Assembly: GCA_965233585.1 (NCBI GenBank)
Contig: CBDDTI010000652.1
Location: 1-27,591 of the forward strand
Direction of reading: 5' to 3'
DNA: 27,591 bases
DNA from: a bacterium
GTDB taxonomy: Bacteria > SAR324 > NAC60-12
Shown: positions 1 through 23,240 of the stretch, one piece after another
How positions within the stretch are numbered: position 1 is the stretch's first letter
Layout of the letters: each line of letters begins with the position of its first letter
Notes under the pieces: model-generated
What the model was told of the DNA's origin: nothing
What the model saw: the letters and a program-made list of their open reading frames with translations, nothing else
The model's database searches: none
Position numbers and translations under genes: made by a program

Positions 1-439
1 TGAAGAGGGATATTTTCGCCAAAGCTCCGCGAAAGTTATGCGAAAGAGCGGGCGAAAGTCAAAGTGCATGTTGAAGGGGGTGGGCCAGTAAATCTTGCCG
101 AAAAACCTAGTCAGCAAGAATCTGCCCTGAGAAGGGATTCCGAGATGCTAGCTGCATGTTTAAAAGACAATCAAGAAGTGATCCGTGATTCTCTGGTGTG
201 ATTTGGCAAGTGGTGAATAAATCTTCACAAGAGGTGTTGTTGGCCAACATAGGCCCCGCGAAAAAAAAAAGTAGTTCGCGAAAGTTTCGCGAAAATAATA
301 TTTTTATTCGCGAAGAAAGGTCGTTCTCGGATAAAGGAATTTTGTTCAATTGCCACATATCAAAACGGTGTTGGCTCAGCATTATTCGTTAGTGATCTTT
401 TATCTAATTCTGCTCTGATTTATATATCTTTGGTTTATT

Positions 440-1037
440 CAGGCTAACCCCGTCCAGGTCGGCCTAGGTCCGCCTAAGTCTGCCCAGGTCAATCCCAACT
501 CCCAGGTTCTCCCAGGTTCTCCCAGGTTTTCCCAGGTTCTCCCAGGTTTTCCCAGGTTCTCCCACATTCTTCCAGGTTCTTCTAGGTTTTCCCAGGTTCT
601 GTCAGGTTCTGTCAGGTTCTCCCAGGTTTTCCCAAGTTCTCCCAAGGTTTTCCCAAGTTTTCCCAGGTTTTCCCAGGTTCTCCCAGGTTCCCCGTTCTCC
701 CAGGTCCTCCCAGGTTTTCCTAGGTTCTCCCAGGTTCTCCCAGGTTTTCCCAGGATCTCCCAGGTTTTCCCAGGTTCTGCCAGGATCTCCCAGATTTTCC
801 CAGGTTTTCCAAAGTTTTCTCAGGTTTCCCAGATTCTCCCAGGTTTTCCCAAGTTCCTTTTTCCCAGGTTTTCCAAGGTTCTCCCAGGTTATCCCAGGTT
901 TTCCCAGGTTTTCCTAGGTTCTCCCGGTTTTCCCACGTTCTCCCAGGTTCTCCTAGGTTCTCCCAGATTCTCCCAGGATCTCTTAGGTTTTCCCAGGTTC
1001 TCCCAGGTTGTCTCAGGTTCTCCCAAGTTCTCCCAGG
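440..1037. repeat. 10-bp tandem satellite (consensus TTCTCCCAGG)
   Basis: Dozens of contiguous ttctcccagg/ttttcccagg units read directly; more diverged units at 440-500. Confidence 0.95.
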
Positions 1038-1065
1038 AAATTAGTGATTTCCTGCGGTTTTATTG

Positions 1066-1250
1066 ATTTCCGGGATTTCCTTGGAGATTCTGGGTGTTAT
1101 TTTCTGCGATTTTGTGGGGTTTCCGGGATTTCCTGGGAGGTTCTGGGTGTTATTTTCTGCGATTTTGTGGGTTTCCGGGATTTCCTGGGAGAACATGGGT
1201 GTTATTTTCTGCGATTTTGTGGGGTTTCCGGGGTTTCCTGGGAGAACCTG
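1066..1250. repeat. ~52-bp minisatellite, ~3.5 copies
   Basis: gttattttctgcgattttgtggg recurs at 1096, 1149 and 1201. Confidence 0.9.
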
Positions 1251-1399
1251 GGTGGAAATAATTGGGGATGGGCCTGGGAGAGCTGCAAGAGTTAGTTCGG
1301 GGAAAAGTGGCTGGAGGGTGGCCCGCTATTTTGACCCGTAATTTCCAAATTTCTGCCGCAGGCATTGCCGCCCCCTTTGGCCTGCAGGTTTGCCACACT

Positions 1400-2200
1400 T
1401 TAAAATTTAATTATAAATATTACAGGGCTATAGCAAAATATATTACTAAGAATTTATTCATATTAATTGATATGTTTTAAAACCAAACACGGATAAAATA
1501 AATTATATTATTGTATTTTCCTTGAAAAATTATATACATTATATATTATATATGACAAATAAATATTATATAAATAGAATTGAAATTTGAGGAAATAATA
1601 TGGATATTAACTATGTTCCAATTATTTTATTAGGATTCTTTGCGAATATGAACATTTTTAAAAAAATATTTATTATTTTCCTTGCTGTGTACGATATTTC
1701 GGCCACTTTTAGGTATATATACATATTCTTATATATAGATAAAACAGGTTGTATCATGATAATAATTTTTCCTGAGATAATTTTCCATTATCTGATGTAA
1801 TTTTTTGTATCCCCGTTGTGATATGGGGATGGTGTGCTTTTTCCCGCATGATGTAACTTAAATACGAAATTTATATGGAAAATTGATATTTATGGTATTA
1901 TTTGTTTATTTATTTATTTATGTATTTATCTATATATATATATGTTCTTTTTTCTAATAAAATTTAATTTATTTAAATTTATTAAAAAATATTTAATTAG
2001 AAATAATTTATTTTTATTATTTTTTAAATAATATAAAAAAACATATTATATGGTTTTTAATTAAATATATACCTAATATATTAAATTAATATATATAATT
2101 TATTTTTATATTATATTTTAAAAATATTCGTATTAATTAGGTATATTACCAAAATTGGATATGTAAATAAAGTATTTCCAATATCTTCCTAATAATTATA
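1400..2200. other. Very AT-rich tract, probably hypermutated repeat DNA
   Basis: Abrupt switch to almost pure A/T; the adjacent repeat copy at 2200-2566 shows C>T/G>A changes. Confidence 0.75.
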
Positions 2201-2566
2201 TTAGTAATATCGTAGAAGGCGGTGACGAAATTTTAAAAATAGGAAACCTATAGGAGAGGTTGCTTGTTGTGAATTACGGATGGCAGAGCGAAGCCATTGA
2301 TGGACCGACAGGTGGATGGAATTATATTTTTCGGAAAGGTTATAATGGTTGCAGTGGTTACCTTACCACAATTGTTGGATATAGTGTGGCGTAGTGCAGT
2401 TGCAATTGTAGTTGTAGTAAAGTATCGTGGAGTTGTAGTTGTAATGTAGTGCAATTAGTGTAGTTGTAGTTGTAGCGTAGTGTGATGTAATTAGTGTAGT
2501 GTAATGTAGTGTAGTGCAGTATAGTATATGAAGTGCAGTGCAGTGTAGTGTAATTTACTTGTAGTT
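2201..2566 (-). mobile_element. 3' fragment of the CTACA-microsatellite element (same family as 13591-16479), AT-shifted
   Basis: Reverse complement aligns with ~16100-16478 (ccactgcaaccatt...ggtccatca...ttcgctctgccatcc...acctctcc...caccgcctt). Confidence 0.9.
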
Positions 2567-3221
2567 GTGTGATGACCCGAGCTGGACTGCCAATGACCGA
2601 GAATTGAAGCTGACCAAATTGCTCAAAGTCCAAGGGTTCGTTGTGGGGATACAGGCGAGTGAAGCTACCAAGATCATGCATGAAAAAGGATGGGACATGG
2701 TCGTGCTTCGAACTTTTCAGAATGCTGAATTGTTAACTCTGGTAGTTGGATCAAATGCAGATCCGCCACAAATGCGATTCACTACCAATTTGGGATCCTT
2801 GCTCATCACACCCCTAGAAGCACAGGATCGCGGACAAATTACTAGGCAGAAATTTACGAAAGATCAGAGTCTTGCCAAGGCAGGCACTGCCGAAAAGAAG
2901 GGTGACACCACCCCCTTAACGGCATCATCAAGTTCCAATCTTGCAGCGGATGATCCTTGGGCATCTGCAGCGCATGCAAACACACGTAATCGGATTGATG
3001 CTATGGAAAAGAAATTTGTGACCCTCAGCGCGCAGGTAGAAAAGCTGGAAAAGGGCCAAGAAACCACGAAAGAGCAGATTAGCAACTTGAAAGCCAGCCA
3101 GGATTCGGGATTTAAACAACTTCTTGACGCCATTGCTGATCTGAAACTTTCGAAACCAAGTGAGTCTTTGAGCTCAACCCCGGTTCCATCCCCAGCGCCA
3201 AAGGTGGCAAAGTATCATTAA
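2567..3221 (+). pseudogene. 5'-truncated ORF1-like C-terminal fragment of a non-LTR retrotransposon (coiled-coil tail)
   Basis: Open 218-codon frame starting right at the junction with a microsatellite element. It has DDPW followed by heptad-like RIDAMEKKFVTLSAQVEKLEKGQ...LLDAIADLK and lies directly upstream of an APE domain. Confidence 0.6.
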
Positions 3222-3736
3222 ACATCAGTTTATCTGAATGTTTTTCTCTGTGTTTGCTACTGTTTGGTGAGATGGCTCTGGGCTTTCTTTGTGGGTTGCA
3301 GGGCGTCTCACTCGCCGGGGTAGTTGCTTTGGCCCCTTTCTATTTTATTCTCATTAATTATTTGTACCGGTTTGGGATCCTCTGCTGTAAGATATCCCCC
3401 CGAAAATCTGAACAAGGGCGTCATGCCAGGAAACGACGCAATTTTGCCAGAAGAATGTTAGCCAGAAGCGCTCTCAATATCTTGCTCATTCAATCGTTTG
3501 TAATTCAACCATTCGCGACTCGACAAGCATGCGGCTTTGGCCGTATATTTTTTTGCTGTCATGCCTGCTCTTTCAATTTTTCTCCTGGGCGCGGGGCTTG
3601 CCAACCCTCGCCAAATCTGAACGAGAACAGGACGACACAATTTTGTCGTTTGATGCAGCTCACATCCTTCATGACAAGTCTGTTCTATTTTGTTCTTTTG
3701 TTTTCCCCATGTAAAAATTATCGTGATGAAGGGCCA

Positions 3737-5412
3737 ATGCAGATTGCTACATTAAATGTCACATCATAGCCCAAAAGGCTTGATACAGTCCTTAACTTTG
3801 CGAACTCGTGCCCTGATTTGGGTTGCCTCATTCTTCAAGAAACACGAATACCTGCCAGCCGGGTCAATTCTTTGACACTTCGGGCCAGAAATGCTGGGTG
3901 GGACCTTTTAGTTGGACATCAACCCCCAATCAGAGCGATTAAGGCTGATAAATTTTCTTTACGCCATTCATGGGGAGGCCTGGCTACTTTGGTTCCTCGT
4001 GACCACCCAGCACGGCTGTTATCATTTCAATCTGAATGGAGCCATCTCGAAAGAGTATATATGCCACTATGGATTCCTTCTGATGATGGGAAATCAGGAT
4101 TTATTATATTAAATTGTTACCTACCAAGCGGCCAATCTATAATTAATGAGCGTGAAATTTTGCTGTCGGCTATTTTTTGTTTTGCTTCCATTTTTGACAC
4201 ATCCCCCACAATGGCTGGAGGTGATCTCCAATGTGCTCCAGAGGATTCCAGTGCACTTACGCAAATATTGGCTTCCAATCGGTGGTCAGATTTTTATGTC
4301 GATAGTTGCAGATCCAGGAACTTAGAGCCCGAGGCCACCTACTCAGGAAATGGGTGGGCGTCAGACTTTCGGGGTTTGAGGAAAAACTCGAATCGACCAT
4401 CTCTTTTTGAACGATTTGGCAAGATCAGCAGCAAAAGAAGCAAGCATCTTTCGAGGTCCAGTTGTGCCTGGTCACTTTCCAATCCTTATAAGATTAGAGT
4501 ACCAGATTTTCCATGAGATGGTTTTTGGGATTAAATAACAACCTCAATGGAATATTCCCGCCAAACCTTGTTCTCAAGAAAAATGGGATGAAAGGGATGC
4601 CATTTGCCACCCGATCCTAGCAATTTATATTCCTTCGTTTGTTCGGGCAGCTGAAAAGGGTGACCCCCAAACTTTCTGGGATAGTTTGACCCGTATGATG
4701 ATGCACGAGATGCTAAATTGTATAGCTGGCCAATTCATTCAGTCACGTAGGGCTGATATTCCGGTTTTTGAATAAAAATCATTCGTTCCATCACCGTATA
4801 AGCAAAATCAATATCAATAAATTTCTTTAAAGAGTTATAAATAATTACATGAATTATCCAAGAAAAACCAAAAAAAACATGAAAATAATCCTGTCTGGAT
4901 AACTCACCTGAAGAGGACTTTGATTAATACCTCCAAGGATTTGGGGACTTTAGGATGCACGATTCCTACACAAGGGTTCTCCCAACAACAAGTCTCTGAA
5001 TTCCTTAATGCTGCCAACCAGGCATTGACAATATATGATTTCGACAAATAAATGCAGGACTAGATTAAAATCATTCATGAGTGGAAAAATCGACTTCGGA
5101 TTTCCAATTCTGCGGATAAGAGGGAATTTTTTCGATGGTTAAAAGGGGTTACCCCTTCGCTCCCCAAATATTTCTTCGCCCTGATGGATCTTTAACTGAT
5201 AATCCTAATGAAATTCTTTCCCTCCTGAAAGATCATGCTGAAAAAAATTATAGCCATCATCGGAATACCCGTGAAGATGCACTTTTCGCACAATTTGTGA
5301 ATTTGTTTCAGGATGAAATCAATAATTTGAAGAATTCAATTAAATTTACCCCTTTTGATATGGTTAACACCTGGAATTTTTTCCAGAAAAAACCCGCCAA
5401 CAAAGCCACGGG
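3737..5412 (+). pseudogene. Decayed LINE ORF2: APE/EEP endonuclease plus linker, truncated just before reverse transcriptase
   Basis: Motifs IATLNVTS*, LILQETR, GGLATL, LNCYLPSG and GGDLQ; after a frameshift near 4375, TRIDHLF and PGHFPI. Further on LRPDGSLTDNPNEILSLL and KKPANKATG (pre-RT KA-G-DG position). Multiple stops and frameshifts. Confidence 0.88.
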
Positions 5413-6355: not shown

Positions 6356-8300
6356 TCTACTTTTAGGGGGGTATAAGGCCTAAGATTCTTGAGGAAACAT
6401 TTGGCTGAAATCTGGCTAAAAAAATAAATTTCAATTCCTATAAAAAAATAATAATTTTAAAATAATTGGTATAATTAAAAATACGAAAAAAAACCTAAAA
6501 AAATATCATATATTTTTATATTATTAATAATATTAGAATAAAATTTTTAAATAAATCAAGTCTAAAATAAAAAAAATATATTTCTGGTAATATAAACATA
6601 TTATATTATAAAATATAATTTAATAAAATTAATATTTTTAAAATATAATTTATATAAAACCATCTTCAATATTTAGGTTTTAAATACTATAAAAAAAATG
6701 TAATAAAAATAACATTTTCGTAAATATATTCTTTAAATTTAAAGATTATAAATATATAAATAAAATTTCTATTCGAATTTTTCTTCAAAATTTAAAAATT
6801 AAAAATATAATAATAAAATATTTATATAAAATTTTCCTCAAAAAATAAAAATAAAATTATATAAATTTTAAAAAATATAATTTAATTCTAAATTACCCAG
6901 AACCATCGGGGTTGCCATTACCCAGGACAACCTATACCCCAGATTTTATAAATACGATTCTAATTTTAAAATATAAATTACAAAAATATAATTAATCAGG
7001 AAAAAAAACCTATAAATATAAAAAAATATTCCAGTTAGAAAAAATACTCCTACAAAAGCCTGAGGATTTTACAACCTATTTTTTTTTTTCCTTTTTAAAA
7101 TAGCCTTAAATTTTCATAATACCTTTGTAGGGGCCTTGTTCAAATATTGGTTAATAATTTCTGTAGTAAAATTTAAGATTCTTTTTCTGGATAGTCCAAG
7201 GATATAGGTTATTTTTAGAATAAATCCGGGATTAATTTTTTTTTCTTAATTAATTATTCTGACCAATTTAAACGGTCGTATTTTATTTTAAAAAATCAAT
7301 ATAAAATTAACTAAATTTATTATCCAAATTAAGGTTATTAAACACTCCCATTATACCAAGATTTACCAAATTTCTTTTTCACGGTTTTCGCGATAGATTA
7401 TTTTTTATTATTTTTCTGCATAGCTAGGCTATATACAGAAACGATTAAAAATAATCCTATAAGTCCTTAATTTTATCTATCCCTAATAAACATACATATA
7501 AATATATGAAAATATATAATAATTCTTAGGAAAATATTAGTATAATGTTAACTAAAAATAATTTCCATAAATTTGTAAAATAAATAATTTCTAATGTAAT
7601 TTTTCTCCCGAAAATTAAAATTAGGTTTAATAATATTATAATATAATTTATAACTACAGGTTTTTTGGATATAATTTACCTATAAATTATATTTAGCCAC
7701 AATTTAGCCATTAAATAAATTCCTAATTTTCCCAATAAATTTATTTAAACATATATATAATATAAATTATTTTTATAAACCAAATAAACATACCTATAAA
7801 ATTCTCTTTATATTACAAAATCCCAATACATAATAAGGTAAATCCTATAAAATAAAATTTTAAAAATTTTTTATAAAAAATATATATTCTCAGCTTTTAA
7901 AAACAAAATAACATCCTCAATTCAAAATCATAACAAATAACAACAATAAAATATTTCCCAATTATTTTCAAAAATATAATTTATTCTATAAATTACAATA
8001 TTTCATACATCCATTAATTTCCAAAAATATATTTCGAAATTTTCCTCAATATATTTAAAAATTAAATGTATTTTTTTTATACAAAATATAATATAAAAAT
8101 TTAAAATAATAAATAAATAATTATAATTTATATTAGAAACATCCCTCAAAATTTCATTATAAAAAAATAAAAAATATAATTTTCATACGAAATTTCCTTC
8201 TATTTTTTTAAATTATAATCGTAATATAATATAACATCTCTTTGTTATAACATGTTATAAGATATCTTTTCTAAAATATACTATATCTTTACTATAACAT
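5680..8300. other. 2.6-kb extremely AT-rich tract
   Basis: Almost pure A/T with no ORFs in the track; grades into a recognisable satellite at its right edge. Confidence 0.85.
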
Positions 8301-8862
8301 ATTATGCGATCTTTTTGTTGTGATATATTATAAGATTTCTTTGTTGTGAAATCGAGATCTCCTTGTTGTGAAATTTCTTTGTTGTAAGGTCTCTTTGTTG
8401 TAAGATTATTTTGTTGTGATATGTTGTAAGATGTCTTTGATGGGAGATTTCCTGATTGTAAGATATCTTTGTTGTGAGATCTCTTTGTTGAGAAATTTCT
8501 TTGTTGTGAGATTTCTTATTGTAAGGGTTGTTTGCTGTGAGATCTCTTTGCTGCGAGGTCTCTTTTCTGGGAGATCTCATTGCGATAATATCTCTTGGCT
8601 ATAAGACCTCTTTGCTCTGAGATCGCTTTGCTGTCTGTGAGACCTCTTTGCTGTGAGATCTCTTTGCAATAAGATCTCTTTGCAGTGAGATTTCTTTGCT
8701 GTAAGACCTCTTCGCTGTGACATGCTGTGAGATCTCTTTGCTGTGACATGCTATGAGATCTCTTTGCTGTGAGACTTCTTTGCCGTAAGATCTCGTTGCT
8801 GTGAGATCAATGACTTCCAAAGATCCGTAACACGGAAGTTAGACCTTCAAAATTCCTTTGAT
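8225..8862 (-). mobile_element. Element carrying a 16-bp satellite (GAGATCTCTTTGCTGT) and ending in a GGAAG..AACTTCC hairpin terminus
   Basis: 16-bp periodicity from ~8300 to 8810. The reverse complement of 8833-8858 matches 13592-13617 at 21/26 positions. Confidence 0.75.
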
Positions 8863-9285
8863 CATGATATTTCATTTTTCTATAAAGCAATATTATAAGA
8901 ACTAATACTAATTTGGCCATACTGTTTATTTGTAACATCCTTTAATATATTTTTAAACATACATGAAATATCTATCTGCTTCTAATATTTTATAATCTCT
9001 TAATATTTTTATTTCGAACCTGGATGAGGAATATTATAAGCAATATTCAGCAATTATGTGAAAGTATGTGCGGATATGATTCAAAAATATGTAAGTGGCC
9101 TTGAATCTCAGCAGGAGCCGCTGCCATCTCGGAATTGCTGCCAGAAACGGCATCAAGCCTTGGCGTCCCCGGCGCACAGCAATCCTGCAAAAAAAAAGAT
9201 ACGTGAACCAATCGTGATGAACCAATGGCACCCGCTCTCTCAAACTAGCACAAATGAACACACACACACACAGAGACAGCCACGC

Positions 9286-9608
9286 ACACACTGTGGGGTA
9301 ATGGTGAGTAGAAAGTGTGAATGATGTCATAGTCTTCGCCTGATTTCCTGAGTTGCCTGGCAGTAGATTTTCAGCGGACACGGATTCGCGATCGAAGAAA
9401 CAACGCACAGCTCATACACAAAAACAGAAAGTCAACAGTTGAAGCATGTTGAAACTATAGCAGGTACGTAGATCAGGCGTCCCTGACCTATATCCTTACC
9501 ACATGTCACCCAGCTTCGTTGGCAGAGGAAGTGACATGGGCACCTCTGCCCCCTGCTTTTGAGAATTGTACAAGCGCAATAAACAGAACTAAAACCGTTT
9601 GTTATAAC
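9286..9608 (-). repeat. Direct repeat A, copy 1 (323 bp)
   Basis: Near-identical to 10720-11042 (2 substitutions seen); (CA)n on both sides. Confidence 0.95.
9460..9556 (-). ncRNA. Putative pseudoknotted structured RNA, type A (also at 10894-10990)
   Basis: Plus-strand coordinates. Outer stem GCAGG 9460-64/CCTGC 9552-56. Stem GGCAGAGG 9521-28/CCTCTGCC 9543-50. Crossing stem CATGTCAC 9502-09/GTGACATG 9531-38. Hairpin 9469-9490. Same topology as the type B motif. Confidence 0.75.
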
Positions 9609-9669
9609 GGTGTACACACACACACACAATGGCCCCGAAATGGGGCAAAACCGCAAACCGCCTAGTTTT

Positions 9670-10410
9670 TACCTAAGAAAACGGACCTAAAGAGCCTGCC
9701 TAAGAGAATGAATACCTGGCCTAAAAGAACCTGATGACGATGACGAGTGATGTGAAAAGCAAAAAGTTAAACCGAGTTCGATAAGTCGTAAATCCTAACA
9801 TTAAAGAAAATGCGCATGCAAAAGCTGTACGTTTGAGTTCAAAAAGAAAACGATGCACAAGACTGTACGATAAAGCCTTTCAGCCAAGACCTCATTTGTA
9901 ATTCCATCTCATCGTCAAGAACAAATAATCGTACAGGTACATTGGCAAGTGAAAGTTCTGAGTTCCGGAACTGCAGAATGAGCTTGAGTTGCTGCTGAGC
10001 TCTTGACCGAAAAGGTTCCGACAAGTTTCGGCTCAATCTACATAACAAAATTCCCTGATTCATCAAAACATGATTGATTCATCAAACCTAAACTGTTTGC
10101 TATATAGTAACCTAAGGAGCCTGCCTAAGCGAGTGAATACATAGCCTAAACAGAACCTGATGACGATGATGAGTGATGTGAGAAATAAAACGTTGAACCA
10201 TGTTCTATACCTAGTAAAACTGACCTAAGGAGCCTGCCTAAGAGAATGAATACATGGCCTCAAAAGAACCTGATGACGATGACGAGTGATGTGAGAAACA
10301 AAACGTTGAAACATGTTCTATACCTGGTAAAACAAACCTAAGGAGCCTGCCTAAGAGAATGAATACATGGCCTAGAAAGAACCTGATGACGATGACGAGT
10401 GAGGTGAAAA
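9670..10410. repeat. 113-bp repeat family (one copy ~9685-9770; tandem copies at ~10110, 10223, 10336)
   Basis: acctaa(g/a)gagcctgcctaag...gaacctgatgacgatga(c/t)gagtga occurs four times. Confidence 0.9.
9839..10066 (-). pseudogene. Possible ORF remnant of the A-flanked element (Penelope-like retroelement protein?)
   Basis: Protein-like peptide LCRLSRNLSEPFRSRAQQQLKLILQFRNSELSLANVPVRL...RSWLKGFI lies between the A repeats. A basic peptide (MTKSRFYTVKSNRSSHKAKKP*GRSF...) lies upstream on the same strand at ~10410-10580. No catalytic motif seen, so the family is inferred only. Confidence 0.35.
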
Positions 10411-10719
10411 TGCTACTGAGACTCCGACCAGACCAAAAGCACTTGTATTGCACCCGTGGTGCTGGGAACTTCGGCTTATGTCTGCTTTGTCCGAACTGGA
10501 CGAAACTTCTGCCTTATGGCTTCTTCGCCTTATGGCTGCTTCGATTGGATTTTACAGTGTAAAATCTTGACTTCGTCATATGACGCTTGAAATGCACTCG
10601 AAGTGCATACGGCTTCGGAGATTCATACTCCACTCTGAATACGGGAAAATGCCCGCTCATGACTTTTTGATTGGTCGAAACCAACCGACGGTGCGACCAA
10701 GTCAGGTCAAACACCCAGG

Positions 10720-11042
10720 ACACACTGTGGGGTAATGGTGAGTAGAAAGTGTGAATGATGTCATAGTCTTCGCCTGATTTCCTGAGTTGCCTGGCAGTAG
10801 ATTTTCAGCGGACACGGATTCGCGATCGAAGAAACAACGCACAGCTCATAAACAAAAACAGAAAGTCAACAGTTGAAACATGTTGAAACTATAGCAGGTA
10901 CGTAGATCAGGCGTCCCTGACCTATATCCTTACCACATGTCACCCAGCTTCGTTGGCAGAGGAAGTGACATGGGCACCTCTGCCCCCTGCTTTTGAGAAT
11001 TGTACAAGCGCAATAAACAGAACTAAAACCGTTTGTTATAAC
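10720..11042 (-). repeat. Direct repeat A, copy 2
   Basis: Offset 1434 bp from copy 1 at both ends. Confidence 0.95.
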
Positions 11043-11049
11043 ACAGACG

Positions 11050-11360
11050 CTAGACAAGAAAGGATCTTTGAAAAGATCCGTCAGGAACTGAATCCTGTAA
11101 CATGCAAACCAGCCTAGACAATTAGACCTAAAGTAGATCCCCTTGTAGTACTTCATTGTGAAATGGACAGCTTGTTCAACAGTTCAAACTGAGTTCTGCA
11201 GGTACAGGGAGGTGATCAGCCTCCCCTTCCCACCAATGGCAATAGCTTCGTTGCGTGCAGTATGCCAAAGGTGCTGCACGCCCCTGCGTTATAAAAAGGG
11301 AGAGGACAGAAGGAAGAAAAAGAAGAGAAAGTTTTACATCTATTTAGATGTTACACACAC
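11050..11360 (-). repeat. Direct repeat B, copy 1 (~311 bp)
   Basis: Near-identical to 12138-12449 (2 substitutions and 1 indel seen); ends in (CA)n. Confidence 0.95.
11198..11287 (-). ncRNA. Putative pseudoknotted structured RNA, type B (also at 12286-12375)
   Basis: Outer stem GCAGG 11198-202/CCTGC 11283-87. Stem GCGTGCAG 11253-60/CTGCACGC 11274-81. Crossing stem CACC-aa-TGGCA 11231-41/TGCCA-aa-GGTG 11263-73. Hairpin 11206-11226. Confidence 0.75.
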
Positions 11361-12137
11361 GCACACACACACCCGGCCGGAGCCGGGTCAACCCTGAAAG
11401 GCAAAAGGAAGAAAAAAGCGGACACGACGACGGGCAAAAACCAGAACAGCGCAGGGGGGGAGGGGAACGAACGGGCCTCCAGAACAAACCTACGCGGCGA
11501 AACGGACCTGACCAAAAACAGAGCACACACCTAAACCCCACGACACATTACGGAGAGGCACGCAGGGAGAATTAGGGGCCAAATGGGGACTAGTTAATGG
11601 CAAGCGAGAGAAACCAAAACAATTAATTTAAAAACAAGACTCAGTTCCTTGATACTTTGAGGTCGTGCATTATTCCCTTGCCGGGACCGTGGTCAAGTCG
11701 TGCCGCAATGGCATAAACGGCTGTTCAAGTTCCATCGAATTAGGTGCACAATATGTTTGACCTCACCAGACAACCATCAAAAGAAAAAAGACCACACCTG
11801 AAAGTCGTGTGCCTGCCTGAATGGTTGTTCATGCGACATGGTTATGTCTCATTTCAAAAGCTGAAGCTGCAGTAAAAACGGGGTTTCTGATTGTTCAGCA
11901 CGGCTTCACAGTCGGAGAAGTGCAGCAGCTAGGAATCCCTGGGACCACAGGAGCCGCGGGAATTCTCGAAAAACGGTAAAGAACCGAAAGGCCAACTGTT
12001 TCGCTTTACTTAAACGAATTGCTAAGTTAAAATGTGTGAATTCGGAAATTTGAAATCAAGTCTGTCCACAGTCACCCACAAAGGGGTTGCCTCAATTGGC
12101 CCTATGGCACCTTGTCGGAGTCACCATAGGAATCACA

Positions 12138-12449
12138 CTAGACAAGAAAGGATCTTTGAAAAGATCCGTCAGGAACTGAGTCGTGTAACATGCAAACCAG
12201 CCTAGACAATTAGACCTAAAGTAGATCCCCTTGTAGTACTTCATTGTGAAATGGACAGCTTGTTCAACAGTTCAAACTGAGTTCTGCAGGTACAGGGAGG
12301 TGATCAGCCTCCCCTTCCCACCAATGGCAATAGCTTCGTTGCGTGCAGTATGCCAAAGGTGCTGCACGCCCCTGCGTTATTAAAAAGGGAGAGGACAGAA
12401 GGAAGAAAAAGAAGAGAAAGTTTTACATCTATTTAGATGTTACACACAC
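12138..12449 (-). repeat. Direct repeat B, copy 2
   Basis: Offset 1088-1089 bp from copy 1. Confidence 0.95.
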
Positions 12450-13590
12450 ACACATACATGCACGACATGCACATCATTCCAAATTGCACTACTATTTGGA
12501 ATATTTTAATATTGGATTGACATGCCTTGACTTGAGGTCTTGACGGGCTCGACTGACTCGACTGAGAAGTTCTTGCACCTACGGTTGCAGCCCGATAGGA
12601 CTGCAAAAGCACGCCAGGGCCAGCACCAGCCCCATCCCTGGGGCATCGGCCGTCGCCGACTAGAAGTGACGTGACAGATCCTCATCAAATCATTCCAATC
12701 ACGCGTTGAGGGTGCCATGTAGGTGGGTAGAACATGCACAACAAAACTTTGGGACGGACCTCTTGAGAAGTTGTCGCCTTGATCTGCATATTCTCGTTTC
12801 TTGATAAAGTTGTCGGTCACCCAGAGCTGGAAGGCGTTCATGATGATCTGCGGCAGGGAAGCTGGAACGACTTCCGCGGAAAACAAGCATAGTTTCTGTT
12901 GAAGCAAGGATGCTGTCAATTGTGTGAAATTGAAGCAATGCGTCCCAAGTCAGCTTCCACAAAGCACCGCGCCGGTGTTGCTATCATCACCACAAGCAAT
13001 TTCAACCTCAAAATCGTACCACTGGAATTTATCAACTGAGCGAGGGTGAGTCACGTCTGAAATTCGGGAACTCAGTGCGACGCAGTGGGTCCATGAAAGG
13101 CTTGAGACACACTCCCGCCGCAATTGTCAAAGGTTTCGCAAGCAAAATCATCAGAATAACCTCGGAACATCTTGGAACATAGGAAAACAAGGTCCATTCG
13201 TCATTGGTATGAGAATGACAAACCAATTTTATCTGTGACCAGTGACAATGACAATGCGCACACTGTTTGGAAAGCTAGAAATAAACTCGGTGGAGTACCA
13301 TAAAGAGCTTCATGAAGGTCACGATCACGAGCCATAAGCCAAGCTGTTTGGCATACATTATCACCTCAACTGGAAGCCAATGCAGCAGAAGCCAAGGCTG
13401 CCCGCGGAAACTTCAAACAAAATGAATGTGATGAAGAACAGTAGCAATTTGGCAAGCTTTAAGTTTCACAAGTTTTCACAAGAATGCTTCAAGCGTTTTG
13501 CAAGCTGGAACCTGGAACTCTCCTCCACGCCAGTAGCTGCCAGTTCTGAAATCCTACGGCCAAACATGTTCACCCTAAGGCCTACTAGCC

Positions 13591-18785: not shown

Positions 18786-18959
18786 AAGGGGGGGTAGAAA
18801 GAAAACATGGAGAAATGTAATGTGAGCAACAAAAGTGCACAGGAGACTCAGTACCATGAGTCTGCGAATGACATGTGCTATCTCATTTTATTATGGTAAT
18901 TCCCACACACATTGCGGAAAAAGGCTCGGCACCATCATTCCGTGAACGCGAAGAAACGC

Positions 18960-21070
18960 GACGCTTTTATACAGAGACGCTTTTACACACAGAATCTTTT
19001 ACACATAAACACTTTTACACACAGACGCTTTCACACAGAGACGTTTTTCATGCGCACACACACAGACGCATTTCCACACAGAGACTTTTACACGAAAACA
19101 CTTTAACACACAGACGCTTTTATACACAGACTCTTTTACACACATACGCTTTTACATGCAGATGCCTTTTTACAGACGCACACACACTTTCACACACAAA
19201 CGCTTTTACACACAGACGCTTTTGCACACAGACACAGACGCTTTTCCACACAGACCCTTTTACACACAGACGCTTTTACACACAAACACTTTTACACACA
19301 TACGCTTTTACACACGGACGCTTTTACACGCAAACACTTTTACATACAGGCGCTTTTACACACAGACGCTTTTACACTCAGACACTTTTACACACAGACG
19401 CTTTTCCACACAGACCCTTTTACACACAGACGCTTTTACACACAAACACTTTTACACACAGACGCTTCCACAGAGACTTTTACACAGAGACGCTCACAAA
19501 GCGCGGCACCACTGGGTGACCTCAGTTTACATATAAGAATATGGATGTTCACTCTGTGCACAATGCATCTTGTCTCTACGTTCACGTCTGAGCCCAGGAA
19601 AGAGGTAAAGAGGTAAACTATGCTTGTCGCTGCAGAGTTGCGCAATCCACTGCAAAGCATTTGCTCTCTGACTTCCAAACTGAGAACACCACTCATGAGT
19701 TTGACATGACAAAGAACCACTGTCGCAGAGACCTGCAAACTGAAGGCTGAACGCATCAACAAAAAACTAGTTTAACAAAGCTCGGTAACAAAAAACTCAG
19801 CAGCTCGGCAACACCATCTTACATCATCTCGCAATGCCTTGTTTCATCTTGTATCATCCTGGACTTCCAAACTGAGAACACAATTCGTGAGTTTGACACT
19901 TGGGATGGGCATCATTGTCGAACACCATGATGCTGCAAATTACATGCATCACACCGTTCTCGAAGGAAACATCCACAAAGGTACAACGAACCCAACAGCT
20001 TGGTAACTTCTACAACTTCATGCACTAACCTGCTACACACTCGCACAATTCAATGCAAAGAATGTGTTCTTCGAAGCCTGAGACCACGACTCCTGCGTTT
20101 GACAAGCAAACATCATTGTCACATAGACATGCAAACTGAACAGTGAAGCTCACTATGAACATCTCAATTCCCACACAAATTATCACACCAAACGAACCAA
20201 GCTCCGCACGTCCTAGCACGGATACACTAGCAAGCATTTTCACCCTCAATCTCTAACAGTTCCATGTCGTGCGGTAAAAGTACACACAAAATCTTTTACA
20301 CACAAACGCTTTTACACATGATGCTTTTACACAAACACACTTTGACACACAGACGCTTTGACACACAAAAGCCTTTACACACAAACGCTTTTACACACAG
20401 ACGCTTTTACACACAGACGCTTTTACACACAGACGCTTTTACACACAAAAGCTTTTACACACAGACGGTTTTACACACAGACGCTTCTACACGCAGGTGC
20501 GGTAAAAGTACACACAAAATCTTTTACACAAACGCTTTTACACATGGTGCTTTTACACAAACACACTTTGACACACAGACGCTTTGACACACAAAAGCCG
20601 TTACACACAAACGCTTTTACACACAGACGCTTTTACACACAGACGCTTTTACACACAGACGCTTTTACACACAGACGCTTTCACACACAAAAGCTTTTAC
20701 ACACAGACGGTTTTACACACAGACGCTTCTACACGCAGACGCTTTTACACGCAGATGCGTTTTACACACGCAGACACGCTTTCACACACAAACGCTTTTA
20801 CACACAGACGCGTTGACACACAAACGCTTTTACACACAGACGCTTTTACGCGCAGATGCGTTTTACACACGCACACGCGCTTTCACACACAAACGCTTTT
20901 ACACACAGACGCGTTCACACAGAAACGCTTTTACATACAGACGCGTTTACACACAGACGCTTTTACACACAGACGCTTTTACACGCAGATGCTTTTTACA
21001 CACGCAGACACGCTTTCACACACAAACGCTTTTACACACAGACGCCTTTACACACAGACATTGTTACACA
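18960..21070. repeat. 16-bp satellite ACACACAGACGCTTTT in two blocks (18960-19495 and 20280-21070)
   Basis: Read directly; the repetitive HTDAFTHRRFYTQTLL ORFs are its translation. Confidence 0.97.
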
Positions 21071-21084
21071 AACGAAAGCGTCCA

Positions 21085-21718
21085 TCGCAATTTTTCCTCA
21101 GTTTTTGACGTCCAAGGTCCATTTCGTGCAAAAGGGTTACGATTAACTAAGTAAAATCGCAATTTTTCCTCAGTTTTTGACGTCCAACGTCCATTTCGTG
21201 CGAAAGGGTTACGATTGACCAAGTAAAATCGCAATTTTTCCTCAATTTTTGACGTCCAACGTCCATTTCGTGCGAAAGGGTTACGATTGACCAAGTAAAA
21301 TCGCAATTTTTCCTCAATTTTTGACGTCCAACGTCCATTTCGTGTGTAAGGGTTACGATTGACAACTCAAAGTCGCAATTTTTCCTCAGTTTTTGACGTC
21401 CAACGTCCATTTCGTGCGAAAGGGTTGCGCCGGACGCTTCAAAGTCGCAATTTTTCCTCAGTTTTTGACGTCCAACGTCCATTTCGTGCGAAAGGGTTGC
21501 GCGCGACCAATAAAAGTTGCAATTTTTCCTCAGTTTTTGACGTCCAACGTCCATTTCGTGCGAAAGGGTTGCGCGGGACGCTTCAAAGTCGCAATTTTTC
21601 CTCAGTTTTTGCCGTCCAACGTCCATTTCGTGCGAAAGGGTTGCCGGGGACGCTTCAAAATCGCAATTTTACCTAGGTTTTGGACGTCCAACGTCCATTT
21701 CGTGCGAAAGGGTTGCGT
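21085..21718. repeat. 72-bp tandem repeat, 9 copies
   Basis: t(c/t)gcaattttt starts at 21085, 21157, 21229, 21301 and so on to 21661. Confidence 0.97.
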
Positions 21719-21777
21719 TTCGTGGCGCTCCGGCGGCACCGCCCCCGCCTTAAGAGAGAATAGAAGAAGAGCGAGAG

Positions 21778-22375
21778 GAGATCTGCAGATGTGAAGATCT
21801 AGATCTGGAGGTGTGAGGGTGTGAAGATCTAGATCTGCAGGTGTGAGGGTGTGATGATGTAGATCTGCAGATGTGAGGGTGTGAAGATCTAGATCTGCAG
21901 GTGTGAGGATGTGAAGATCTAGATCTGCAGGTGTGAGGGTGCGAAGATCTAGATCTGCAGATGTGAGGGTGTGAAGATGTAGATCTGCAGATGTGAGGGT
22001 GTGAAGATCTAGATCTGCAGGTGTGAAGGTGTGAAGATCTAGATCTGCAGGTGTGAAGGTGTGAAGATCTAGATCTGCAGGTGTGAAGGTGTGAAGATCT
22101 AGATCTGCAGGTGTGAAGGTGTGAAGATCTAGATCTGCAGGTGTCAGGGGGTGTGAAGATGTAGATCAGCAGATGTGAGGGTGTGAAAATGTAGATCTGC
22201 AGATGTGAAGGTGTGAAGATGTAGATCTGCAGGTGTGAAGGTGTGAAGATGTAGATCAGCAGATGTGAAGGTGTGAAGATCTAGATCTGCAGGTGTGGAG
22301 GTGTGAAGATCTAGATCTGCAGGTATGAGGGTGTGAAGATGTAGATCAGCAGATGTGAAGGTGTGAAGATGTAGT
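21778..22375. repeat. 30-bp tandem repeat (GTGTGAAGGTGTGAAGATCTAGATCTGCAG), ~20 copies
   Basis: Read directly; gives a 10-aa periodic translation. Confidence 0.97.
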
Positions 22376-23240
22376 ATAACGGCTGCTTTTTTACGAAGAA
22401 CCCTTCGCAGGCGCTCTCGGGAAAAATGATGGAAACATGATGAAATGTGTATTCCCACGATGGTAGGCAATATCATATGAGATAAGCTGCATGAAGCAGC
22501 CGCAAGGCTTCGCAAGGTGTGGGGATCTGGGGGATTTGCATTTATTGCGCTGTGAAAAATCTGTCACTATCTGGGACTCTGGCCTTTTTGGCGATCAATG
22601 TGCCGATGCAGCAGGCAAACAGCAAAAGCTGCACCTTGAGCCATCGAAATCATCGAGCTGAATCCATTGAGTTTCGTATGAGAATTTATCAGAATCAATG
22701 ATTGAATTAACTGAATCCGACGAATCCACCTAAATGCCAAGCCGGGCGCCAGCAAGCCGTAGAGGCCGGGGAGCACAATACATGGCTTCGTGGAGCTTTC
22801 TGCCATAGACCCGAGTCCATGACAACTACCGCATACCACCTACTGCCTTTGCATGTAGGATATGTATTCTAAATAGTTTGAAGTATGTAAGTGTCTTAAG
22901 ATGCATGTGCGTATTTACTGTGTGGATCTGTGAATATTTCTGTGAACATTTCCAGAGTGTTGTACTAACACAATCACACGGCCTCCCACATCTGTGGTCT
23001 AGACGCGTTCATTTGAAGGGTGTCTATAAAAACGAAAATAATGTATCATACAACAATGAAGCACTTCTCTGCAACGCGGGTTGTTCTGCCATCTCTGAGA
23101 CCATTCCTATGGCGCACACATGTAACCCCTGAGGTCTGCAAAGGCAATAACCAGTGGAATGTCCGAGTCAAGTTCACCAGGTCACTGCAACGTAGATGTC
23201 AAGATCTTTGTGGACAACTTGTGGCAACTGACTCTCCGCA

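Follow-up and report, generated by a model that had tools for sequence, protein, structure and literature searches.

A covarying pseudoknotted RNA motif in the terminal modules of Penelope-like retroelements: a candidate ribozyme or other cis-acting RNA

A 27,591-nt stretch of DNA filed under a bacterium (the whole of contig CBDDTI010000652.1 in assembly GCA_965233585.1; hereafter the window) carries, between positions 9460 and 12375, four copies of a compact pseudoknotted fold within the terminal repeats of two elements, A and B, and raises the question of which strand this RNA is made from and what it does for the elements that keep it. We find that the motif is a real RNA structure, in which an internal stem (P2), the pseudoknot and a hairpin covary, and that it forms a cis-acting RNA domain of Penelope-like elements (PLEs), transcribed from the minus strand of the window, where it occupies the hammerhead ribozyme's place in elements that lack a hammerhead. 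As to function, the most likely reading, if still a tentative one, is that it is a self-cleaving ribozyme of an undescribed class doing the hammerhead's job.

The motif is 75-97 nt long and reads GCAGG-G-P2-AAC(G/A)AAG-pseudoknot-(optional hairpin)-C/U-GUA-CCUGC; the pattern of its fixed blocks matches the window four times, against 0.00 expected from 100 dinucleotide-preserving shuffles. In RNA sense, the 5′ strand of the closing helix P1 (GCAGG) is followed by one G (in 54 of the 55 representatives described below) and by the 8-bp P2, whose 13-15-nt loop is nearly entirely the 5′ strand of the pseudoknot; the 3′ strand of P2 comes next, and a linker of AAC(G/A)AAG plus 1-3 variable bases precedes the 3′ strand of the pseudoknot. 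The pseudoknot helix spans 9-14 bp (mean 12), frequently interrupted by a U/U or UU/UU mismatch at the center or by a bulged U, and is followed by a purine-rich junction (GGAAG, GGAUA or GUGAUA), the optional hairpin, C or U, GUA, and the P1 3′ strand CCUGC. As read from the sequence, motif B in the 3′ module of the full B element (11198-11287, minus strand; model scores 95.7 and 96 bits) consists of P1 5′ (11287-11283), G (11282), P2 5′ (11281-11274), the loop that forms the pseudoknot 5′ strand (11273-11263), UA (11262-11261), P2 3′ (11260-11253), the linker AACGAAGCUAU (11252-11242), the pseudoknot 3′ strand (11241-11231), GGAAG (11230-11226), a hairpin with a CUGAUCA loop (11225-11207), U (11206), GUA (11205-11203) and P1 3′ (11202-11198), and its sequence is repeated identically in the upstream 5′-truncated module (12286-12375, minus strand). 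Motif A in the 3′ module of the full A element (9460-9556, minus strand; 44.5 and 43.1 bits) is built in the same order from P1 5′ (9556-9552), G (9551), P2 5′ (9550-9543), the loop (9542-9529), P2 3′ (9528-9521), the linker AACGAAGCUGG (9520-9510), the pseudoknot 3′ strand (9509-9497), AGGAUA (9496-9491), a hairpin with a GACG loop (9490-9469), C (9468), GUA (9467-9465) and P1 3′ (9464-9460), again with an identical copy in the upstream 5′-truncated module (10894-10990, minus strand). Both sequences are exactly as the initial annotation of this locus gave them, and the fold that it saw in the two is real.

That annotation counted two independent sequences, a basis that is now superseded. A search of the 12.0 Mb assembly, in which the window is contig C652, with exact and relaxed patterns and a covariance model from six members places the motif on nine contigs (C13, C463, C477, C548, C559, C599, C615, C652 and C698), and it is present at no fewer than 127 loci in public metagenome contigs and at 8 loci in a scan of a prokaryote genome collection. 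The assembly and the fetched loci together hold 141 distinct regular-expression matches, 123 of which have at least 7 of the 8 P2 pairs together with a loop/partner duplex at least as stable as -10 kcal/mol; the remaining 18 comprise three apparent chance matches devoid of the helices (L049, L146 and L148) and others that are indel-shifted or decayed. Thinning the 123 to at least five base differences in the P2 5′ strand plus loop yields the 55 representatives. It is important to note that the collection pattern fixed GCAGGGG, CAACGAAG and GTACCTGC, so that those blocks are invariant partly by construction.

The structural evidence comes from the parts that were left free. A model covering P1, P2 and the hairpin (R1) gives an alignment of 111 distinct rows in which 95.4% of cells are paired, versus 66.0% in shuffles, with a covariation score of 0.585 versus 0.117 that none of 500 shuffles reaches (slid controls, 0.041-0.078), and both-sided changes are found in all but one of the 8 P2 pairs and in all but one of the 7 hairpin pairs. 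For a second model (R2), eight gap-free members of 90 nt were used and P2 was replaced by the pseudoknot, encoded as nested pairs; it returns 122 matches and 116 distinct rows, in an alignment that is fitted to the structure and therefore leans towards it: 95.5% of the pseudoknot is paired, versus 56.8% in shuffles, the covariation score is 0.810 versus 0.151 (again 0 of 500 shuffles; slid controls, 0.034-0.053), and all 11 pairs change on both sides, in 53-77 sequences per pair. In a check that needs no alignment, the native loop/partner duplexes average -18.3 kcal/mol, versus -8.0 for 2970 swapped partners, only 0.3% of which reach the native median. Together, these data extend to a whole family the covariation of 8-bp stem, pseudoknot and hairpin that had been proposed from A and B. 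They also revise other parts of that proposal. The closing stem, presented as an invariant helix, is a pairing that covariation does not support: compensatory change occurs in none of the five P1 pairs (GCAGG/CCUGC), mutated copies merely lose one pair, and a relaxed descriptor search for members with another P1 returned noise only, the true members having GCAGG/CCUGC or a single-base decay of it. The hairpin is no fixed part of the fold but is absent from 15 of the 55 representatives, which read ...GUGAAAAC-GUA instead; among the 40 present, the loop is CUGAUCA in 17 and GACG in 15, the rest being mostly loops with UGGCCA or UGAUCA, and one or other of these two self-complementary hexamers lies in 22 of the 40 loops. 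Nor is the linker strictly invariant as AACGAAGCU, since it varies past AACGAAG, and AACAAAG occurs in several families whose copies were found without the anchor, including both C615 copies, which are full members with P1 GCGGG.

The sense of the RNA follows from the coding sequence of an autonomous relative. A weak open reading frame (ORF) resembling a reverse transcriptase (RT) in locus L050 led to contig C599, and a search with the 300-aa C599 ORF to full-length relatives of 539-1064 aa, one of which, P0003 (890 aa), served to place the ORF by tblastn. On C599 the ORF runs from 6810 to 9213, is broken by a satellite array and resumes at 12465-12665, with the motif at 12742-12816, all on the plus strand, the one that the motif occupies on this contig. 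In all three loci with ORF pieces adjoining the motif, the RT-like ORF is upstream on the motif's strand and the motif follows about 40-270 nt downstream: the C599 ORF reaches to ~12665-12700, and the gap is ~115 nt in L072 and 269 nt in L050. C13 has a further weak ORF fragment (32429-32704), which is on the opposite strand to the nearest motif, 3.7 kb away. Because the element's ORF sits on the motif's strand, we conclude, on what is the decisive evidence, that the minus strand of the window is the RNA sense, in keeping with the initial annotation, which had favored it on the basis of three imperfect pairs; counted strictly inside helices, wobbles amount to 19 G-U versus 6-9 A-C in the minus-strand sense, and 48 of the 55 representatives form the stabler pseudoknot in the ORF sense, a comparison in which P2 and the hairpin come out neutral.

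By its sequence, the protein of this autonomous relative is a Penelope-type RT. Its C-terminal half aligns with the assembly's canonical PLE RTs, taken as those adjoining a Pfam GIY-YIG match, at an hhalign probability of 96% (E 4e-9, 176 columns), versus 1.2% and 0.3% for two other RT sets; the Pfam RVT_1 match is weak (E 8e-4), an insertion of ~32 residues separates RT motifs A and B, and motif C reads RYVDN. YVDN replaces YxDD, and with it the second catalytic aspartate, in the three full-length relatives read (from the set P0001-P0011; C599 ~9050-9110), and the largest cluster of the PLE protein family with YVDN has 244 member sequences. The N-terminal part reads ...Y-x6-FYIGSTS...KRDFNR..., and a GIY-YIG nuclease ahead of the RT is probable, although the indications are suggestive only: hhalign matches the YIG...R motif to the GIY-YIG domains that Pfam verifies in the assembly with a probability of 38% (E 3e-4), and in the nearest ESM Atlas clusters 25-38% of members bear GIY-YIG and some bear RVT_1, while the autonomous protein itself has no Pfam GIY-YIG match, a PDB profile search with the protein family gave 0 matches, and the AlphaFold model of the N-terminal part (mean pLDDT 44.9) is unusable. 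Between this domain and the RT, CCC or CSC can be seen by eye. The order of nuclease before RT, the CxC-like motif, the fingers insertion, the (TG)n target and the lack of a hammerhead match Naiad and Chlamys, and the relative thus appears to have the architecture of these N-terminal-endonuclease PLEs, a placement made from these shared features.

Within the window, A and B are non-coding retroelement derivatives, and their R modules are pseudo-long terminal repeats (pseudo-LTRs) from PLE-style partial tandem insertion, which bears out the terminal-repeat setting first proposed for the fold. In RNA sense, the layout is a 5′-truncated copy, (TG)n-R, followed by a full copy, internal region or ORF-(TG)n-R; B accordingly runs through 12455-12135 and 12134-11047, and A through 11046-10720 and 10719-9286, both on the minus strand. 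The upstream truncated copy of B (12135-12455) comprises (TG)n at ~12456-12442, a hairpin at 12439-12426, the motif and the 3′ end, and the internal region comes directly next. The latter, I_B (11366-12134), starts with UGUGAUUCC, ends in (TG)n at ~11372-11353, has no ORF of 110 aa or more and is 73-84% identical to the internal regions on C559, C615, C13 and C548. Module R_B of the full copy, its 3′ untranslated region (UTR) or pseudo-LTR (11047-11365), is 98% identical to 12135-12454 and contains a small hairpin (11350-11337), UAAAACUU (11336-11329), a pyrimidine-rich spacer, the motif, a variable part and the conserved 3′ end ...cuuucuugucuag, with 11047 as its last position and an end block that is kept in C559, C698, C548, C13 and C615. 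The truncated copy of A (10720-11046) abuts this 3′ end through a short gucugugu and leads into the non-coding internal region I_A (9631-10719), which has 113-bp tandem repeats at 10110-10448 and is covered by contigs of RNA runs; module R_A of the full copy (9286-9630), 99% identical to 10720-11042, has (TG)n at ~9630-9614, a hairpin at 9611-9596, UUUUAGUU, the motif and a 3′ end ...ccccacag, followed by TG-rich flank. The 113-bp repeats of A (10110-10448 and 9723-9792) carry words of the CUGAUGACGAUGA type, which draw weak C/D-box small nucleolar RNA (snoRNA) matches far below threshold. A and B had been taken as unrelated repeat families, but they share one type of module, made of (TG)n, small hairpin, motif and 3′ end, and the internal region of B is, as given above, akin to those of four other composites.

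The same organization recurs outside the window. Every motif is preceded by (UG)n, a small hairpin and a word identical or similar to UAAAACUU, and lies 150-250 nt from the element's 3′ end, where R closes with a conserved block ...ggauucaguuccugccggauca...cuuaucuag, or with a second type ...uucugagcaag, and then UGUG. The spacing of direct-repeat motif pairs is 1.0-1.4 kb in five composites (A and B of the window, C13, C559 and C615) and 9.3 kb on C599; the R pairs are 96-99% identical within a composite, whereas composites with internal regions 73-84% alike have completely different motif helices. The elements insert into (TG)n microsatellites, and on C13 (14000-18000) five successive (TG)n-R units of different families, 370-1215 bp apart, look like repeated insertion into each other's microsatellite. 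The 3′-terminal block (window 11047-11110 and 12135-12200; C559, C548, C615 and C13) has a hairpin of its own, GGAUCA...UGAUCC, which is plausibly the RT recognition site at the element's 3′ end. In several families a second conserved segment, ...GUCCCGCCCUGGGCGCAUUUAAGAUGCAGCUGGGGGGAC..., with complementary ends and an inner stem, lies 3′ of the motif (C13 at 36364, 37538, 17603, 16370 and 15150; C477 at 15034; C599) and is probably structured. The small hairpin plus GUAAAACUU beside the RT was tried as an orientation test and proved too noisy.

In the favored reading of the motif as a self-cleaving ribozyme, one cut per module in read-through or tandem transcripts would release unit-length RNA of ~1.09 kb (B) and 1.43 kb (A), which could be circularized and copied more than once around. 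The ribozyme's core would consist of the near-fixed junction bases G6, AAC(G/A)AAG, G-N-GA-W-R and C/U-GUA, lying between P1, P2 and the pseudoknot, and the scissile bond might be, at a guess, in or beside the GUA that precedes the P1 3′ strand. Free helices around near-fixed junction bases are what catalytic cores have, as do ligand and protein pockets, and the non-coding derivatives retain the motif in cis, as retrozymes retain hammerheads. Furthermore, the R copies are homogenized within composites, which points to a template with one R, that is, a unit-length, circular or multimeric RNA such as ribozyme processing gives. Taken to its full extent, this reading would make the motif a new, eleventh-or-later natural self-cleaving class that replaces the hammerhead in N-terminal-endonuclease PLEs, so far regarded as free of ribozymes, and drives a retrozyme-like cycle in corals by way of unit-length RNA that may be circular; its pistol-like but differently connected core would be nature's second solution on one architectural plan. 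We hold this composite proposal somewhat more tentatively than self-cleavage itself. As for expression, internal regions are found at high word depth in contigs of four RNA runs from three studies, and the stretch at 11309-11863 (the 3′ half of I_B with the adjoining (TG)n and hairpin) has a summed word depth of 177-3851 in four coral metatranscriptome runs; the B family is probably highly expressed, or else DNA was carried over into the RNA libraries. Depth is low over the motif itself, as its family-specific helices would lead to, and nothing is drawn from this.

Several observations weigh against self-cleavage or against parts of the wider reading. The argument for cleavage is made from sequence and context, and the RNA data consist of assembled contigs that show neither ends nor strand. 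No genomic copies start or end at a fixed point inside the motif, partial matches being contig ends or point-mutated copies; element junctions lie instead at UGUG or (TG)n microhomology, where one C477 copy ends 7 nt past the motif, and would fit microhomology priming on a (CA)n/(TG)n target. P1, whose pairing is without covariation support, fits protein or DNA-level recognition as well as it does a catalytic core, the linker G is replaced (AACAAAG) in families that still transposed, such as that with two copies on C615, and the palindromic hexamers in 22 of 40 hairpin loops suggest RNA dimerization and a packaging-type function. Nor is it proven what hammerheads themselves do in PLEs, and Naiads thrive without them, according to PMC8557442. 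By our own reasoning, moreover, a 13-nt loop paired over 11-12 bp within an 8-bp stem looks sterically tight, so that P2 and the pseudoknot may alternate and not coexist. Finally, the strand support from wobble pairs is modest, and single-sequence folding z-scores (-1.3 and -2.0 sense versus -3.5 and -2.2 antisense) provide no strand signal.

Much of this would sit equally well with a non-catalytic RNA, which is nearly as likely as a ribozyme: either a platform that binds the RT or nuclease for ribonucleoprotein assembly and template choice in target-primed reverse transcription, much as the RTs concerned make use of the R2 3′ UTR and the telomerase RNA pseudoknot, or a dimerization or packaging signal. 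The motif belongs to the 3′ UTR, all 5′-truncated copies and non-coding derivatives keep it, and the sequence of P1 and the junction bases stays constant, compensatory changes being absent, as protein recognition would give; the palindromes and the absence of cleavage-defined element ends point the same way, and PMC8557442 describes PLE RTs as sisters of telomerase RTs, whose function requires an RNA pseudoknot. Yet the small (UG)n-adjacent hairpin and the 3′-terminal block with its hairpin are better placed as RT recognition sites than a motif set back by 150-250 nt, the palindrome-bearing hairpin is dispensable, and the motif's position is that of the hammerhead in canonical PLEs (PMC8557442). 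A further, unlikely option is another RNA role, such as an exonuclease-resistant or stabilizing 3′ UTR structure, a translational or processing signal, or a switch between P2 and the pseudoknot: in nested folding the two compete, the minimum-energy fold picking one and the centroid the other, their coexistence looks sterically tight, and the motif comes soon after the stop codon, but one set of sequences shows covariation in both P2 and the pseudoknot, the non-coding derivatives lack any ORF that could be regulated, and no Rfam family of these kinds matches. Least probable of all, and very doubtful in our view, is that the conservation reflects a DNA-level signal, a promoter or nuclease site in the pseudo-LTR, or an antisense-strand structure, with the RNA fold incidental. 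The GCAGG...GTACCTGC blocks are fixed without covariation, transcription starts within the pseudo-LTR in the PLEs studied (PMC8557442), and antisense single-sequence folds are as stable as the sense ones; such a signal would, however, hardly keep three helices paired through hundreds of both-sided changes, and both the greater stability of the pseudoknot in the ORF sense and the excess of internal G-U over A-C speak for a sense RNA.

It is also improbable, if less so than the DNA-level explanation, that the motif belongs to a known self-cleaving class in rearranged or highly diverged form; the closest is pistol-like connectivity, and a permuted hammerhead or an HDV-like fold (after hepatitis delta virus) are the other candidates. 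Rfam 15 has no gathering-score match anywhere in the window, in agreement with the initial annotation, which by eye saw no fit to hammerhead, HDV, twister or pistol; at E<=10, the region 9300-12500 yields three junk snoRNA matches away from the motif, and 20 related loci yield 53 matches, none at the motif, mostly weak and of microRNA or snoRNA type and most of them beside repeats. No ribozyme model is among them, including those of twister, twister-sister, hatchet, hairpin, VS, glmS and hovlinc, although covariance models ignore pseudoknots, and very divergent members of these seven could escape them. For HDV-like ribozymes, a nested double pseudoknot with the P1 5′ strand at the cleaved 5′ end, a 3-bp P3, an L3/P1.1 module and a catalytic C in J4/2, there is the CGAA of the motif's linker, present also in the HDV J4/2 strand, but inspection of the motif and 60 nt upstream finds neither an upstream strand to partner in P1 nor P3, L3 or P1.1. 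A hammerhead is equally hard to accommodate: a single G separates P1 and P2, there is no conserved CUGANGA, and CUGAUCA is merely a hairpin loop that is missing from 23 of 40 hairpins and from all 15 hairpin-less representatives. Natural permuted hammerheads do exist, and non-circular permutations create pseudoknots, but they retain CUGANGA (PMC10085705), and Hammerhead_1 was detected elsewhere in the same assembly and not at the motif. Pistol shares a loop-strand pairing past an A-rich linker, a second hairpin and a G-U junction, yet its P2 5′ strand lies between the linker and the pseudoknot strand and its P3/P2 junction is strictly 2 nt, GU (PMC4604425), whereas here the 5′ strand of the closing helix precedes the first hairpin and the C/U-GUA junction has 4-5 nt. 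Searches of Rfam 15 and of open-access and bioRxiv literature found no description of the motif, and those of the same literature no conserved RNA motif reported for Naiad or Chlamys elements.

The DNA that carries these elements is eukaryotic, binned with a bacterial genome. Some 3.5-4 Mb of the assembly are dense-coding, bacterial-looking contigs, and ~7-8 Mb, including the window, have few long ORFs, the two parts sharing a GC content of ~40%; the assembly is listed as a prokaryote with completeness 92.5 and contamination 2.1, yet is mixed. Because it has 113 RVT_1 and 60 GIY-YIG matches, frequently adjacent, the low-coding part is eukaryotic and rich in PLEs. Of the public runs with the window stretch, six RNA and two DNA runs bear the label coral metagenome, the others having coded organism names, and among the runs carrying the stretch nothing points to the dinoflagellate source assumed initially; the eukaryote is coral-associated, either the coral host or another member of the holobiont. 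Hammerhead_1 gives 18 matches in the assembly, 7 of them above cut-off and none on the nine motif contigs; the seven are type I hammerheads on other low-coding contigs (C658, C660, C147, C310, C122, C633 and C612), two of which, C310 and C660, also have RT matches. A Pfam search of 19 window ORFs and 7 C599 ORFs returned only a weak, sub-cut-off SseC match (window ORF 2565-3218). Satellite arrays of 16, 30 and 72 bp, common to window 18900-22500 and C599 9115-12300 and 16900-18560, were set aside as no part of the finding. Well-formed motif copies also occur in bins of unrelated bacteria (L144, L149, L151, L145, L147 and L150; locus GC 0.47-0.52), with flanks dissimilar to this assembly; L144 and L149 are 13 kb apart in one 5.3 Mb chromosome of a metagenome-assembled genome, L151 is in another such chromosome of 4.2 Mb, and a 406-aa ORF upstream of the L144 motif on the motif's strand proved unrelated to the PLE protein (hhalign probability 0.2%). 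Such copies are probably host DNA or chimeric assembly, and several bacterial genome bins would then contain host retroelement DNA.

Naiad and Chlamys are reported to be without hammerheads (PMC8557442), which leaves open whether such PLEs need a ribozyme, and a conserved, covarying RNA at the hammerhead's place makes that need directly testable. Should the motif cleave, animals or their symbionts would be the source of a new ribozyme class, and ribozyme processing would be linked to every PLE with an endonuclease. Should it not, these relatives of telomerase would have their first defined cis-RNA element, and with it a way into the question of how the RT selects a template. In either case the covariance model is ready for annotating these elements.

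Among known systems, the nearest in setting are the hammerheads of canonical PLE pseudo-LTRs and of retrozymes. Like them, the motif is a small structured sense RNA near the 3′ end of a repeated terminal module, it is kept in non-coding derivatives as hammerheads are in retrozymes, its elements form partial tandems, and its coral-associated host also has type I hammerheads (PMC8557442, PMC7229834 and 10.64898/2026.07.22.740005). Unlike them, it has no CUGANGA core but an 11-14-bp pseudoknot and is known here from sequence alone, and its units measure 1.0-1.4 kb, with a coding copy of 9.3 kb, as opposed to the 220-400-bp monomers of hammerhead tandems. In PMC8557442, hammerheads are described as typically lying within PLE pseudo-LTRs, with an unclear role, the partial-tandem arrangement of pseudo-LTRs is set out for PLEs, and Naiads and most Chlamys are said to be hammerhead-free, with (CA)n as the Chlamys target. 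The autonomous relative resembles Naiad and Chlamys in its nuclease-like domain before the RT, CxC-like motif, motif A/B insertion, pseudo-LTRs, microsatellite target and lack of a hammerhead, and Chlamys in particular in having no cysteines between the GIY-like and YIG motifs and in a (CA)n/(TG)n target (PMC8557442). It differs from Chlamys, known from green algae, spike mosses and slime moulds, in its occurrence in coral-holobiont DNA, and from both groups in the YVDN motif C of all relatives seen and in a GIY-YIG that Pfam does not confirm.

The HDV-like ribozymes of R2, RTE and L1Tc are likewise pseudoknotted retroelement RNAs, which process co-transcripts, and share CGAA with the motif's linker; they sit at the element's 5′ end with a P1 strand at the cleaved 5′ end, whereas the motif lies in the 3′ module and has no such strand. 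Pistol comes closest in architecture, with a conserved G after the pseudoknot 3′ strand as in the motif. In both, an A-rich linker separates the first hairpin from the downstream strand with which its loop pairs, a second hairpin comes next, and a junction containing G-U precedes the 3′ strand of the closing helix (PMC4604425). The motif differs in that its 5′ closing strand is at the extreme 5′ end, its second hairpin is optional, its pseudoknot is twice as long and it is carried by elements of eukaryotic DNA, while pistol is bacterial and phage-associated; it may therefore work like pistol, yet it is no member of that class.

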